Shown here piece by piece: positions 3,029-18,175 of a stretch of 18,175 bases of DNA (position 1 is its first letter; each line of letters starts with the position of its first letter). Source of the DNA: a virus (Duplodnaviria > Heunggongvirae > Uroviricota > Caudoviricetes); the IMG/VR virus record IMGVR_UViG_2547132279_000005. One strand, written 5' to 3'. The translations under genes and the position numbers were made by a program. A model generated the notes under the pieces. That model was given only the letters and a program-made list of their open reading frames with translations, ran no database searches and had not been told where the DNA came from.

Positions 3029-3936
3029 ATGCCCGCCGTTGACCTTTCCCAGTTACCGGAACCCGCCATCATCGCGGAGCCTGACTTTGAAGCAATTCTG
3101 GCTGACACAAAAGCCATGATGATTGCGTCCTATCCCGCCGAACAGCGTGAAGCCGTTTCCGCCGCACTGGAGCTGGAATCGGAACCCCTTAACGTTATCG
3201 CTCAAACCATGTCGTTTCGTGAAATGCTGTTACGCCAGCGGGTCAATGAGGGTGCACGCGCCTGCATGTTAAGCCACAGCGCCGGGACAAACCTGGACAA
3301 CCTCGCAGGCAATATGAACACAAAGCGCCTGGTTATCACTCCGGCAACGGATACCACCGACGCAGTGATGGAAAGTGACACCTCGCTGAGACTGCGGGCG
3401 CAACGGGCGTATGACGGTCTGAGTGTTGCTGGCCCGTCAGGTGCATACGAGTATTTTGCACGCAGCGCCAGCGGTCTGGTACGCGACGCGCGGGCCATCA
3501 GTCCGTCTCCGGCAAATGTGACGGTTTCCATCCTGTCCACTGACTGTCCACTGAAGGCGACGGCACAGCAACGGAGGCGTTGCTTAATACCGTTCGCGCC
3601 GTTCTGAATGCAGAGGATACCCGCCCGGTGGCCGACCGCCTGACCGTACAGAGTGCCAGAATCGTGACATGGCGGCTGAATGCAAAACTGTACTTTTACC
3701 CCGGCCCGGAATCCGAACCTATTCTGGCCGCGGCTGAATCGTCGTTCAGGAAGTGGCTGGCTGAGCAGGGGCTTATCGGTCAGGACGTGGCGTTGTCCGC
3801 CATTGCTGCCGCACTGCATGTGCACGGTGTGCAACGCGTGGAGATAATCGAACCCACACAGAATATGGCCATCAGCGACATACAGGCGGCGCGCTGTGAG
3901 TCGTTCACCATCAGCGAAGGTGGGCGCAATGAGTAA
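3029..3936 (+). pseudogene. J: Baseplate protein gpJ, disrupted by an 11-bp tandem duplication causing a frameshift
   Basis: The J homologue is split between ORF 3029..3607 and ORF 3580..3936. CTGTCCACTGA occurs twice in perfect tandem at 3533-3543 and 3544-3554. Deleting one copy restores a single 299-codon frame reading ...VTVSILSTEGDGTATEALLNTVRAVLNAEDTRPVADRLTVQ..., colinear with P2 gpJ (...VTISVLS...VRPVADRVTVQ...). Confidence 0.85.
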
Positions 3937-15075: not shown

Positions 15076-15232
15076 AGCTTCAGCCCCTTGTATCCGTTAA
15101 ATGATTCGGCAACAATCATCACCCACCACGCGCGTAATCTCACCCCTGCGCCGTTCTCCCGTCACGGCGACAACAAAAAGCAGTAACCCCCTCCGCACGC
15201 ACATGCGACCATGCCGCACAGGGAGGGAACAG

Positions 15233-16342
15233 ATGACCGATACCACCATGCAATTGCTCAGTCAGGGCACAGACCCCGTGAAAATGCCGGATTTTGATAT
15301 TCTCGCGGAGGGTAAAACGCTGTCAGGCGTGGCCGAGCGCCTGATGAGCCTGTCACTGACCGACAACCGGGGATTTGAGGCGGACCAGCTCACCATCACG
15401 CTGGATGATGCGGATGGTCAGTTGCAGCTACCGCCACGGGGCGCGCGCCTGACGGTTCTCATTGGCTGGAAAGGAGAACCGCTGACAGAAAAAGGCACTT
15501 ACATTGTTGATGAAATCGCTCACGAAGGACCGCCGGACAGGCTGACTGTTTCAGCCAGAAGCGCAGATTTTCGGGATGAATTTAACGTTAAACGTGAGGT
15601 GTCCTGGCATGATGTGACCATTGAGCGTGTGGTATCCGCCATCGCTCATCGGTATGGTCTGAAACCGCAAATCAGCGAAATGCTGATGGATATCGAAATC
15701 GACCACGCCGACCAGACTGAAGAAAGCGACATGTCCTTCCTTACGCGCATGGCGGAAATGCTGGGCGCAATCACCACGGTAAAAAGCGGTAATCTGTTAT
15801 TCATCATGCCCGGCGGTGGCGTGAACGCACAGGGCCAGCCGTTGCCATCGTTCGCCATCACACGCAGCAGCGGCGATCGCCATCAGTTCCGCATTGCTGA
15901 CCGCGAGGCGTATACGGGGGTACGCGCTTACTGGCTTGATCTTAATTACGGGAAAAAGAAAAAAGTCAGCGTGAAACGCCGCAAACCGCCAAAACCCAAA
16001 AAGGAGAAAAGCAGCAGCCGTGAAGGTGATTATATGGAAGGCGCGGAAGGCAATGTGTTTGTGTTACGCAAGACTTATCAGAACGAGCAGGCAGCAAGAC
16101 GCGCAGCGGCGGCAAAGTGGCAGCAGCTACAACGCGGAGCCGCATCATTCTCCATCACGCTGGCGCGTGGACGCGCAGAACTCTATCCCGAAATGCATGG
16201 CACGGTGAAAGGCTTCAAAAGTGACATCGACAATCAGGACTGGATTATTGCAAAAGCTGAGCACACCATTGATAACAGCGGCTTTACCACACAGCTTGAG
16301 CTTGAGGCAAAAATCCCGGAATGGATAGCGGAAACAGAGTGA
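15233..16342 (+). CDS. D: Tail protein gpD (late control gene D / baseplate hub)
   Basis: LMSLSLTDNRGFEADQLTITLDDADGQLQLPPRGARLTVLIGWKG, RSADFR, SDMSFLTRMAE and a lysine-rich linker followed by EGDYMEGAEGNVF are colinear with P2 gpD. Start chosen at ATG 15233, preceded by GGGAGGG; the ORF track extends upstream to 15101. Confidence 0.85.
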   Translation: MTDTTMQLLSQGTDPVKMPDFDILAEGKTLSGVAERLMSLSLTDNRGFEADQLTITLDDADGQLQLPPRGARLTVLIGWKGEPLTEKGTYIVDEIAHEGPPDRLTVSARSADFRDEFNVKREVSWHDVTIERVVSAIAHRYGLKPQISEMLMDIEIDHADQTEESDMSFLTRMAEMLGAITTVKSGNLLFIMPGGGVNAQGQPLPSFAITRSSGDRHQFRIADREAYTGVRAYWLDLNYGKKKKVSVKRRKPPKPKKEKSSSREGDYMEGAEGNVFVLRKTYQNEQAARRAAAAKWQQLQRGAASFSITLARGRAELYPEMHGTVKGFKSDIDNQDWIIAKAEHTIDNSGFTTQLELEAKIPEWIAETE

Positions 16343-16384
16343 AGAACTTAGAATAGCGGCAGCACCACGTTAAGGGAGGTCGCT

Positions 16385-16645
16385 ATGTTCCGTTGTCCGC
16401 TTTGTGGCGCATCTGCCCGTATCCGCACCAGTCGTCCGGAAAATGATTCAAACACCGTGCGGCAAAAGTATTACCAGTGTAACAACCTGGAATGCGGCGT
16501 ATGCTTCTCAACACTGGAAGCCTTCCATAAATTCACATCGAAACACGCCTCCGGCGTTCACTCATCAGAAGGTATTCCGTGGCATGAGCTGCCAGCTTCA
16601 CACAGGGGAAACAATCAGATGAGTTTGCCTTTACCTCAGAATTAA
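16385..16645 (+). CDS. ogr: Ogr/Delta-family zinc-finger late transcription activator
   Basis: MFRCPLCGASARIRTSRPENDSNTVRQKYYQCNNLEC has the same CxxC...CxxxxC layout and ARTSR motif as P2 Ogr (MFHCPLCQHAAHARTSR...YHQCQNVNC). Preceded by an AGGGAGG Shine-Dalgarno sequence. Confidence 0.85.
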   Translation: MFRCPLCGASARIRTSRPENDSNTVRQKYYQCNNLECGVCFSTLEAFHKFTSKHASGVHSSEGIPWHELPASHRGNNQMSLPLPQN

Positions 16646-16718
16646 CAGGCAGAATTGCCGGAGTAACAAAAAAGCGATAGATTACGCGCGGGTGCCTTTC
16701 GGCTGATGGTCGGAGGGA

Positions 16719-16916
16719 ATGCCCGAAGGCCAGATGTGGAAAGGCCCCGGAAAACATCTCTGTTTAACCGAGGCCCTAACCGTCTACCTAGCAAGTGATA
16801 GGTTAGCGCCTCCCCGAAAAAGGAGCAAGCGCTATGTCGCAAAAATCGCTTACAGCCATCACGTTCTGTGTGACGGCAATCCTCATCATCTGGATGCTGC
16901 ACGGCTCGCTGTGTGA
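16719..16916 (+). CDS. mok-like overlapping reading frame upstream of and overlapping the hok-like gene
   Basis: A 65-codon ORF begins 115 nt upstream of the hok-like start and overlaps it in another frame, as mok does in hok/sok loci. There is no independent sequence support. Confidence 0.35.
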   Translation: MPEGQMWKGPGKHLCLTEALTVYLASDRLAPPRKRSKRYVAKIAYSHHVLCDGNPHHLDAARLAV

Positions 16917-16974
16917 AATACGGATGAACTTCTGGGGAGCGGAGTTTGCGGCGTTCTTACAGTGTAAACAGTAA
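16834..16974 (+). CDS. Hok/Gef-family type I toxin (small membrane protein)
   Basis: The 46-aa product MSQKSLTAITFCVTAILIIWMLHGSLCEIRMNFWGAEFAAFLQCKQ has an N-terminal transmembrane segment and the family motifs SLCE(I/L)R and AAFL.CK (compare Hok RKSLCEIR; HokA ...WMIRDSLCEL...ELAAFLACK). SD is AAGGAG. A 9-bp-stem hairpin at 16984-17007 lies just downstream. Confidence 0.75.
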   Translation: MSQKSLTAITFCVTAILIIWMLHGSLCEIRMNFWGAEFAAFLQCKQ

Positions 16975-17064
16975 GGAAACCGCGACGGGGGAAGAGATTC
17001 CCCCGTCAATCGGTTGCCAGGGTAAGGTCGATAAGGCACCCTATCTCACAGACATGAACAACAA

Positions 17065-17098
17065 ACCCGCAGCGTAAAAACTGCGGGTTTTCTTTTTG
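17065..17098 (+). terminator. Rho-independent terminator downstream of the hok-like gene
   Basis: ACCCGCAG-CGTAAAAA-CTGCGGGT stem-loop followed by TTTCTTTTTG. Confidence 0.75.
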
Positions 17099-17144
17099 CT
17101 ACCCTCACAAATGAGGGCACCATACATAAGCAATAGGCATAACA

Positions 17145-17182
17145 GATCGATGCAATAAATCCGATCGATAAAAACGATCGAT
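17145..17182. promoter_or_regulatory. Cluster of three GATCGAT motifs (Dam GATC sites) in the com-like promoter region
   Basis: GATC at 17145-17148, 17163-17166 and 17176-17179, each within GATCGAT, spaced 18 and 13 bp apart, 45-80 bp upstream of the com-like start. Confidence 0.6.
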
Positions 17183-17226
17183 TTGTTATCATATCGGCAG
17201 CAGTAACCACACAAGAGGTGCCGCAA

Positions 17227-17424
17227 ATGACGCAAAATGTACGATGCAAAAATTGCAACAAACTACTTGCCCGCGCCTCATTTCACTACATTGAAATAAA
17301 ATGTCCGCGCTGCAAAACACTTAACCAGATAACGAGAGCCATCGAGCACCCCACACACATGAGGAGTTATGACCGTGGGGATCGCAATCCAGCACCAACC
17401 AGCACATACACCGGAACACACTAA
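17227..17424 (+). CDS. com: Com-like zinc-finger translational regulator (Mu Com homologue)
   Basis: MTQNVRCKNCNKLLARASFHYIEIKCPRCK matches Mu Com (MKSIRCKNCNKLLFKADSFDHIEIRCPRCK), with four Cys in a CxxC...CxxC layout. SD AAGAGG lies 9 nt upstream of ATG 17227. The 3' end overlaps the methyltransferase start. Confidence 0.85.
   Translation: MTQNVRCKNCNKLLARASFHYIEIKCPRCKTLNQITRAIEHPTHMRSYDRGDRNPAPTSTYTGTH
17349..17380 (+). promoter_or_regulatory. RNA hairpin enclosing the methyltransferase Shine-Dalgarno sequence and start codons (candidate Com target)
   Basis: CCCCAC (17349-17354) and GTGGGG (17375-17380) are exactly complementary. They flank GAGGAG (17361-17366) and ATG 17369, and the in-frame GTG 17375 is part of the 3' arm. 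Confidence 0.45.
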
Positions 17425-18175
17425 GGTTTATCAGACTGACAATGCCACGCTCTGTCGTGGGAATGCGCTGGAAATATTGCCGCTGATTGAGCCAGAAAGC
17501 ATTGATGCCTTAATCACTGACCCGCCTTACAGTTCGGGTGCGACACACAAGGCCGGACGCACCAACCAGGGCAGCCATGCAAAATATCTGAACGGCGAGA
17601 ACCTTCACCGCTTTGATGGGTTCGCGGGTGAAAACATGGACGCCCGTTCGTGGGCTTACTGGACACAATTATGGATGGCACAGGCACACCGCGCAGTCAG
17701 GCCGGGCGGTTATGCCCTGGTATTTACTGACTGGCGACAACTACCAGCTTTAACCGATGCGTTTCAGGCCAGTGGCTTTACATGGCGCGGCATCATTGCG
17801 TGGAACAAGGGGAGGGGGTCACGAACACCACATACCGGGTATTTCCGGCATCAGTGCGAATACATCGTCTGGGGCAGCAAAGGCCATTTAGATAAATCGC
17901 CTTCGGGACCGTTCGACGGCTGCATGACGTTCCCGGTTATCCCGTCAAAGAAAATGCACCCGACCGGAAAACCAGAAGAACTAATGGCGGAACTGGTCAG
18001 GACTGTGAATAGTGGCGGAACAGTCCTCGATCCTTTTATGGGGTCAGGGACAACGGGTGTGGCTGCACTGAAAGCAGGGCGAAAATTTATTGGTATAGAA
18101 ACCAGTGATCATTATTTTGAGGTAGCAGCGCAGAGGCTTCGGGGGACTATTACCACAACCATTTCGGCTACATAA
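17369..18175 (+). CDS. DNA methyltransferase, beta-class amino-methyltransferase (probable N6-adenine), com-linked
   Basis: Motif IV DPPY (ITDPPYSS) precedes motif I FxGxG (LDPFMGSGTTG), with HPTGKP between, the motif order of beta-class N6/N4 methyltransferases. The start overlaps the com 3' end; ATG 17369 or GTG 17375. The stop TAA is at 18173-18175. Confidence 0.85.
   Translation: MTVGIAIQHQPAHTPEHTKVYQTDNATLCRGNALEILPLIEPESIDALITDPPYSSGATHKAGRTNQGSHAKYLNGENLHRFDGFAGENMDARSWAYWTQLWMAQAHRAVRPGGYALVFTDWRQLPALTDAFQASGFTWRGIIAWNKGRGSRTPHTGYFRHQCEYIVWGSKGHLDKSPSGPFDGCMTFPVIPSKKMHPTGKPEELMAELVRTVNSGGTVLDPFMGSGTTGVAALKAGRKFIGIETSDHYFEVAAQRLRGTITTTISAT

Follow-up and report, generated by a model that had tools for sequence, protein, structure and literature searches.

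A candidate Dam-methylation-sensitive OxyR operator of the Mu com-mom type upstream of a com-methyltransferase operon in a P2-like prophage

Control of phage Mu mom and of Escherichia coli agn43 by Dam methylation and OxyR is textbook knowledge, and the Mu mom case is usually treated as a peculiarity of Mu. Here we describe a candidate operator of the same type upstream of com and a DNA methyltransferase gene, in IMG/VR virus record IMGVR_UViG_2547132279_000005 (Caudoviricetes); the window is the whole 18,175-bp stretch that was analyzed, the right-hand part of a P2-like prophage (ogr, gpD). In Mu, Dam methylation of three GATCs in a 43-bp upstream region stops OxyR binding, and OxyR represses the unmethylated operon, according to those passages of PMC7549136 and PMC3378877 that cite Bolker and Kahmann 1989 and Sun and Hattman 1996. 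Phase variation of agn43 runs on the same Dam/OxyR logic (PMC2909390). At P22/Salmonella gtr and at opvAB, on phage or horizontally acquired DNA, 13-bp GATC pairs lie in OxyR half-sites (PMC2909390, which gives the 13-bp spacing for P22 gtr, and PMC3350482). In Mu-like prophages, a com homolog lies directly upstream of an adenine methyltransferase that replaces Mom (Hia5, Hin1523, Nme1821), and translational control is presumed (Drozdz et al. 2012, PMC3299994); OxyR is not mentioned in that paper, nor is Dam/OxyR control proposed for the Hia5-type methylases.

In the window, three GATC sites with starts spaced 18 and 13 bp apart lie within 35 bp, upstream of com. The first-pass annotation had placed them at 17145, 17163, and 17176, each within GATCGAT, and both coordinates and description proved correct. 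The cluster reads, 5' to 3', aacaGATCGATgcaataaatccGATCGATaaaaacGATCGATttgttatcat, and GATCGAT occurs exactly three times in the window, always on the plus strand. The features of the region are as follows.

17133 to 17182, candidate OxyR-type operator of about 50 bp, with tetrads about 11 bp apart (ATAG at 17133, AGAT at 17144, ATAA at 17155, CGAT at 17166, and ATCG at 17177)
17145 to 17182, plus strand, GATC cluster
17145 to 17148, Dam site GATC I, in GATCGAT 17145 to 17151, invariant in the alignment of window-type relatives (A1) and placed relative to sites II and III as in Mu
17163 to 17166, Dam site GATC II, in GATCGAT 17163 to 17169, overlapping the predicted −35 hexamer
17176 to 17179, Dam site GATC III, in GATCGAT 17176 to 17182, within the predicted promoter spacer
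17165 to 17170, plus strand, predicted −35 hexamer TCGATA (4/6)
17184 to 17192, plus strand, predicted extended −10, TG-n-TATCAT (5/6 plus TG), 16-bp spacer
17213 to 17218, plus strand, com Shine-Dalgarno sequence AAGAGG, read from the sequence and conserved in A1
17227 to 17424, plus strand, com, zinc-ribbon translational activator of 65 amino acids (Pfam PF10122, Zn_ribbon_Com, E = 9.5e-12)
17349 to 17380, plus strand, translation-inhibition hairpin with arms CCCCAC and GUGGGG (RNA fold)
17369 to 18175, plus strand, beta-class N6/N4 DNA methyltransferase with a DPPY motif (Pfam PF01555, E = 2.7e-33)

We estimate a probability of about 70% that the segment from 17133 to 17182 is a Dam-methylation-sensitive OxyR operator homologous to that of Mu com-mom, controlling the com-methyltransferase cargo at the right end of this P2-like prophage by promoter occlusion. 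From the sequence and its relatives, we infer the following sequence of events. When the GATC sites are unmethylated, or possibly hemimethylated, an OxyR tetramer would bind the operator and cover the −35 hexamer and spacer of an extended −10 sigma-70 promoter, so that RNA polymerase would be blocked and the operon repressed. Dam methylation of the GATC sites would exclude OxyR and allow the com-methylase mRNA to be transcribed. Com would then bind this mRNA and open the hairpin that hides the ribosome-binding site and start codon of the methylase, as in Mu.

The closest match is Mu itself (NC_000929), where the GATC sites upstream of com-mom start at positions 1160, 1178, and 1191 of the locus used here (L002), giving the same 18/13 spacing. 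This spacing supports the proposal in the first-pass annotation of a Mu mom-like arrangement. The tetrad ATAG precedes GATC I by exactly 8 nt in the window, in the related loci L227, L240, and L279, in Mu, and in agn43, and 29 of 38 cluster bases, counted by eye, are identical between the window and Mu. In both elements the next gene is com, encoding a zinc-ribbon protein (60% identity over 42 amino acids), and com overlaps a DNA-modification gene whose Shine-Dalgarno sequence and start codon lie in a CCCAC...GUGGG hairpin. Mu differs in that its operator lies upstream of a weak promoter dependent on the activator C (PMC3378877, PMC4461284). The Mu stretch between GATC III and com contains a TTAT-N6-ATAA C site, a poor −35, a 19-bp spacer with a T6 run, and a −10, and com starts 78 bp after GATC III, whereas the window has no C site, its com starts only 51 bp after GATC III (27 bp closer), and its operator coincides in part with a predicted sigma-70 promoter that has an extended −10. 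The window also differs in its payload, a beta-class N6/N4 methyltransferase rather than Mom, and in being a P2-like element rather than a transposable phage.

One further similarity to Mu is the 9-mer TAACCACAC, found downstream of GATC III in both the window (17204 to 17212) and Mu (L002 1208 to 1216). The Mu copy overlaps the C-site/−35 region; the window copy is 11 bp farther from GATC III and directly precedes the com Shine-Dalgarno sequence, within the predicted 5' leader. The window copy is probably a vestige, possibly of a Mu-type promoter.

The agn43 (flu) gene of E. coli K-12 is similar in other respects, with three GATC sites in an OxyR site (19/13), the ATAG-N8-GATC arrangement, and an operator that overlaps or abuts an activator-independent promoter, which is a prediction in the window, where OxyR would likewise act by occlusion. 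The operator sits just past the −10 in agn43 but covers the predicted −35 and spacer in the window, and the spacing between sites I and II is 19 bp in agn43 compared to 18 bp in the window. In addition, agn43 encodes an autotransporter and has no com and no translational layer, and phase variation is proven for agn43 but only a possibility for the locus described here. The gtr and opvAB systems differ from the single compact three-site operator of the window in having four GATC sites in two separated pairs, alternative OxyR half-site occupancy, and surface-modification genes. The Hia5, Hin1523, and Nme1821 systems differ in having no GATC cluster upstream at the Haemophilus and Neisseria com loci fetched, and in belonging to Mu-like rather than P2-like prophages.

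Every window position was scored against the 37-bp OxyR consensus ATAGnTnnnAnCTAT-N7-ATAGnTnnnAnCTAT, in which 20 bases are specified. The four best starts, at 17133 (15/20), 17142 (15/20), 17146 (14/20), and 17155 (13/20), all define matches inside 17133 to 17182, and only five positions in the window score 13 or more, four of them in the cluster. Using the same scoring, the validated sites of Mu and agn43 score 13 and 14. That the best OxyR-consensus matches in the window equal or exceed these scores supports the earlier suggestion of a Mu mom-like, Dam-sensitive OxyR site upstream of the com-methyltransferase operon. The register starting at 17133 opens with the conserved ATAG, and in the register starting at 17142, GATC II and GATC III have the offsets found in the 14/20 register of agn43 (start 316). 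Taken jointly, these two registers would delimit the operator of about 50 bp. The hexamer ATCGAT holds both ATCG and CGAT, which are one-mismatch forms of the OxyR tetrads ATAG and CTAT, and the extended GATCGAT repeat may thus be the outcome of superposing GATC on an OxyR tetrad. A terminator at CGATCGATAAAAACGATCG (17162 to 17180), flagged as terminator-like on both strands, was rejected as a by-product of the repeated palindromic CGATCG in the promoter region, 70 bp past the real terminator at 17063 to 17090.

For comparison across phages, com loci were chosen for Com homology and not for GATC content; species-representative genomes and viral contigs contributed 80 each. A GATC cluster was present upstream of com in all enteric (Enterobacteriaceae) lineages, and no such cluster was found upstream at the com loci of Acinetobacter, Neisseria, Haemophilus, Methylophaga, Pseudoalteromonas, Magnetococcales, and others. 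The enteric lineages are listed below by downstream gene and GATC spacing.

Window-type lineage, including L227 and L240 (Com of L240 71% identical): N6/N4 methylase, GATC 18/13
Mu and L010: Mom, GATC 18/13
L279 group: Mom-like by sequence (Pfam not run), GATC 18, then CATC at the site III position
O157 Sp18-like group (L003, L250): Mom (Pfam-assigned in L250), GATC 13
Citrobacter group (L007): C5-cytosine methylase, GATC 13

The 18/13 spacing was thus found in L010, L227, and L240, as well as in Salmonella (L005), and the 13-bp spacing between sites II and III is common to Mu, agn43, and the O157 Sp18-like and Citrobacter com loci. The GATC II-III segment of Citrobacter L007 and O157 L003 is almost identical to that of agn43. 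When six com lineages were compared, GATC columns were 92 to 100% identical and other operator columns 37 to 79% identical. GATC II was kept in all lineages compared, with the exception of one natural variant in which it is GAAC (L211, at about 1437). Within the window-type lineage (A1), the ATAG, the three GATC sites, and TGnTATCAT do not vary at all, in contrast to an upstream flank that has diverged completely. An alignment of homologous prophage loci had been proposed as a check in the first-pass annotation; it shows the GATC positions conserved across diverged enteric-phage com loci while neighboring bases drift, and non-enteric com loci without the cluster.

The same candidate switch also precedes other DNA-modification genes, a point missed in the first-pass annotation. 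In addition to the Mom loci, a Citrobacter braakii locus (L007 1501 to 2707) and viral contigs L270 to L277 carry com with two upstream GATC sites 13 bp apart, followed by a C5-cytosine DNA methylase (PF00145). With Mom, N6/N4, and C5 payloads, the com/GATC cassette therefore appears to serve three unrelated classes of modification enzyme, and the candidate switch described here would belong to a portable com cassette.

A scan of viral contigs for GATCG-N13-GATCG-N8-GATCG returned at least 120 matches. Among the 120 matches listed, 15 were directly upstream of com (10 window-type and 5 Mu-type), and most of the others listed sit in GC-rich DNA, a remainder that looks like chance. Two viral contigs carry the GATCG triple directly upstream of a Dam-family methyltransferase gene (Pfam D12 class, PF02086) with no com: L163 (cluster at 1510 to 1545 in the orientation used, open reading frame at 1578 to 2333) and L176 (cluster at 3515 to 3550, open reading frame from 3569). 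With a GATC-sensitive operator in front of its gene, an enzyme that methylates GATC would regulate itself. Other 18/13 GATCG triples in AT-rich viral contigs (L126 7284 to 7319, L185, L197, L170, L124, L194, and L116) match the OxyR consensus at 11 to 13 of 20 bases and have no com nearby; those of L197 and L170 adjoin divergent small lipoprotein-like open reading frames.

Of special interest is the relation of the operator to the promoter. Only one sigma-70-like site was found between 16600 and 17500, TCGATA / TG-n-TATCAT, from which a start point near 17199 can be placed tentatively. In this predicted layout GATC I lies near −55, GATC II lies in the −35, and GATC III lies in the spacer. The −10 element is conserved; TGnTATCAT is invariant in all window-type relatives, including the diverged L227 and L240, and in the Citrobacter lineage TATACT likewise lies 11 nt from GATC III. 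The operator is thus predicted to overlie an apparently activator-independent promoter, as in agn43 and unlike the activator-dependent promoter downstream of the operator in Mu. The first-pass annotation did not include this overlap with a predicted sigma-70 promoter, which sets the locus apart from Mu and its operator upstream of a C-dependent one.

Other promoter types were searched for and rejected. The Mu C-activator site TTAT-N6-ATAA does not occur after GATC III in the window, and a Mu-type C-dependent promoter was rejected. An Ogr-dependent P2 late promoter was rejected in the same way, with no TGT-N12-ACA box upstream of com. The only copy in the window, where about 5 would be expected by chance, lies inside com (17302 to 17319), where it encodes the CPRCKT zinc knuckle 50 to 67 bp before the methylase start, and it is probably coincidental. 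A leader stem, CGGCA/UGCCG, around the com Shine-Dalgarno sequence was rejected on the basis of natural substitutions at 17197/17198 without compensation.

Two readings that dispense with repression by OxyR were weighed against this geometry, and each is unlikely. The first holds that the cluster depends on Dam and not on OxyR, either through an effect of −35/spacer methylation on the affinity of RNA polymerase or through SeqA, which would silence the hemimethylated promoter transiently after replication. At the IS10 transposase promoter, GATC methylation changes RNA polymerase affinity directly, and the placement of GATC II in the predicted −35 and of GATC III in the spacer would suit such an effect, just as the 31-bp distance between sites I and III, about three helical turns, would suit SeqA pairing. 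The individual spacings of 18 and 13 bp are off-phase for SeqA, however. Strict conservation is limited to the GATC cores, as this explanation would have it, but conservation extends to non-GATC columns at the OxyR tetrads (ATAG, AT in the second tetrad, and the G following the GATCs), and the arrangement is homologous to two operators, Mu mom and agn43, at which OxyR is the proven reader.

The second, which we regard as similarly improbable, makes OxyR an activator or redox sensor, such that the methylase would be induced by oxidative stress and modulated by Dam. In this case OxyR would occupy the register from 17133 to 17169, which abuts the −35 as at promoters of the katG/oxyS type, scores 15/20, begins with a perfect conserved ATAG, and spans about −67 to −31 if +1 lies near 17199. 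OxyR is known to both activate and repress at P22 gtr through alternative half-sites (PMC2909390), yet at Mu mom and agn43 it is a repressor regardless of redox state (PMC2909390, PMC3378877). A promoter with the good extended −10 predicted here should need no activator, and GATC III is equally conserved despite lying outside this register.

Less probable still is that the embedded GATC is incidental and that the full GATCGAT is read by a dedicated phage-encoded repressor, the fallback offered in the first-pass annotation, or by the methylase itself. Three perfect copies of the 7-mer lie inside 38 bp, ATCGAT is palindromic, and the operon encodes a DNA-binding enzyme, the methylase. Relatives nevertheless carry GATCAAT (site I of EC291 and site III of L227, RIVM, and SC418), GATCGTC (site II of L240), GATCGGT (site III of L235 and site II of Mu), and GATCGAA (site I of Mu), so that only GATC(G/A) is conserved and GATC itself is retained. 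This variation at positions 5 to 7 makes a protein dedicated to GATCGAT unlikely. The same sites also precede Mom and C5-methylase genes in unrelated phages, which would share no dedicated repressor.

A chance or slippage-generated repeat with no regulatory role is the least credible explanation: a bare GATC triple within 35 bp does arise by chance in 8 to 19% of comparable sequences (P = 0.08 for random placement of the 41 GATCs of the window; 77 of 400 first-order Markov simulations, about 0.19), and the repeats have collapsed to one copy in L006 and L237 to L239, but the exact 18/13 spacing appeared in 0 of 400 such simulations and recurs in lineages whose Com proteins are 50 to 70% identical and whose operators are otherwise 37 to 58% identical. 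Since the bare triple is not significant, the argument for the operator rests on the clustering of the 7-mer (P of about 1e-5 for three copies all inside 38 bp) and on the comparative data, and support for the cluster is comparative, not statistical. Across the whole window GATC is underrepresented, with 41 observed compared to 63.7 ± 7.5 expected from dinucleotide shuffles (200 of 200 shuffles had at least 41), which fits the GATC avoidance reported in prophages (PMC4659465, PMC6602927). This scarcity makes the local cluster more conspicuous.

Several points weigh against a Dam/OxyR operator. The promoter is a consensus prediction, with one match found compared to 1.0 expected in shuffles. 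The OxyR register is not fixable from the sequence, and with a start at 17133, OxyR would cover about −67 to −31, which is a geometry known from OxyR-activated promoters too. Alignment between lineages was anchored on the GATC sites, which somewhat inflates their conservation, and most window-type relatives are at least 95% identical, making their invariance weak evidence. Finally, natural variants without the cluster (L006 and L237 to L239) indicate that the switch is dispensable. In L006 (about 1440 to 1500) a 31-bp deletion between GATCGAT I and GATCGAT III has reduced the three repeats to one, and in L237 to L239 (about 1440 to 1500) the collapsed operator has no GATC left, only AATCAAT. 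The collapse puts TAGGCA (window 17134 to 17139) at a 16-bp spacing from TATCAT, so that a promoter may survive in these variants without the operator. Together with the GATC II-to-GAAC variant, the collapsed operators are ready-made controls.

The gene downstream of the operator, described as com-like in the first-pass annotation, is a genuine com by its Zn_ribbon_Com match and its identity to Mu Com. Its product has the CxxC...CxxC zinc ribbon, com is the first gene of the operon, and the annotations of phage Chuche and of RefSeq E. coli genomes call the homologous gene Com. It overlaps the methylase gene by 56 nt. The hairpin folds at −16.5 to −17.5 kcal/mol (z of about −1.9 to −2.1) and encloses the methylase Shine-Dalgarno sequence GAGGAG (17361 to 17366), the AUG at 17369, and a GUG at 17375 in the 3' arm. 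In Mu, L240, and L250 the gene after com likewise starts within a CCCAC...GUGGG hairpin. Its open reading frame opens at the 3'-arm GUG in two of these loci, L240 and L250, so that GUG 17375 may be the true start of the methylase in the window.

The regulated gene in the window is the PF01555 N6/N4 methylase, not Mom (PF25680). The enzyme is 97% identical to the phage Chuche methyltransferase, and its nearest solved relatives are DpnA-type adenine methylases and CcrM. Identity with M.EcoGII was rejected, as that 349-amino-acid enzyme belongs to a different prophage (PMC5778455), and kinship with Hia5/Hin1523 was rejected after tblastn gave no match to the window methylase in the fetched Haemophilus and Neisseria com loci.

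Upstream of the operon, the window contains the following features.

15101 to 16342, plus strand, gpD tail protein (Pfam)
16385 to 16645, plus strand, Ogr/Delta zinc-finger late activator (Pfam)
16690 to 16847, sok-like RNA, a subthreshold Rfam match (44.4 bits compared to a gathering score of 59, E = 3e-8)
16834 to 16974, plus strand, Hok/Gef toxin gene (Pfam PF01848, E = 3e-7)
17063 to 17090, both strands, bidirectional intrinsic terminator (stem-loop plus T run)

The terminator insulates the com operon from the upstream ogr and hok genes, and because it precedes the operon, com and the methylase gene form an independent transcription unit. It is kept in relatives, including those in which a TM2-domain gene has been inserted upstream. 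That extra gene, encoding a TM2-domain protein upstream of the com operator, was seen in some E. coli relatives (L004 1631 to 1927; hits H14 and H16 to H18), and the L004 methylase is annotated as frameshifted. A hok/sok-like module (16690 to 16974) lies between ogr and the com operon, and the subthreshold sok match near hok was the only result of an Rfam scan of 16300 to 18175. Between the terminator and the operator, positions 17102 to 17117 form a small perfect palindrome, CCCTCAcaaaTGAGGG, which is present in most window-type relatives and replaced by unrelated sequence in Chuche-type and L227-type loci.

Phage Chuche (PP925824) is 94.8% identical across the region, and its integrase comes next after the com-methylase pair, which therefore fills a cargo slot beside the attachment site. 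The regulatory region was found in 172 of 5,426 complete E. coli genomes (about 3%) and also in Salmonella (L005).

A search of the available literature returned no report of a Mu-type Dam/OxyR operator in a P2-like prophage, before a beta-class methylase, or over an activator-independent promoter. Reuse of the operator in a P2-like prophage for a different DNA-modifying enzyme would be a credible variant of the known Dam/OxyR switch. The locus suggests that operator, com, and mRNA hairpin travel together as a module, one that would guard three unrelated classes of DNA-modifying enzyme in different phages.

An operator over an activator-independent promoter also predicts agn43-like bistability of the methyltransferase. 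By analogy with agn43, Dam and OxyR could compete after every round of replication and so split lysogens into heritable ON and OFF subpopulations, which would make this a phase-variable methyltransferase (a "phasevarion") that is possibly self-reinforcing, an extension that we regard as tentative and on balance doubtful. The ON state would be self-reinforcing if the methylase can modify adenines of the operator that controls it. If real, such a phasevarion would be present in about 3% of complete E. coli genomes, and the cells of a clonal lysogen population would differ in methylome and in susceptibility to restriction. More broadly, the GATC/OxyR operator and com would constitute a portable safety cassette for toxic DNA-modification genes.

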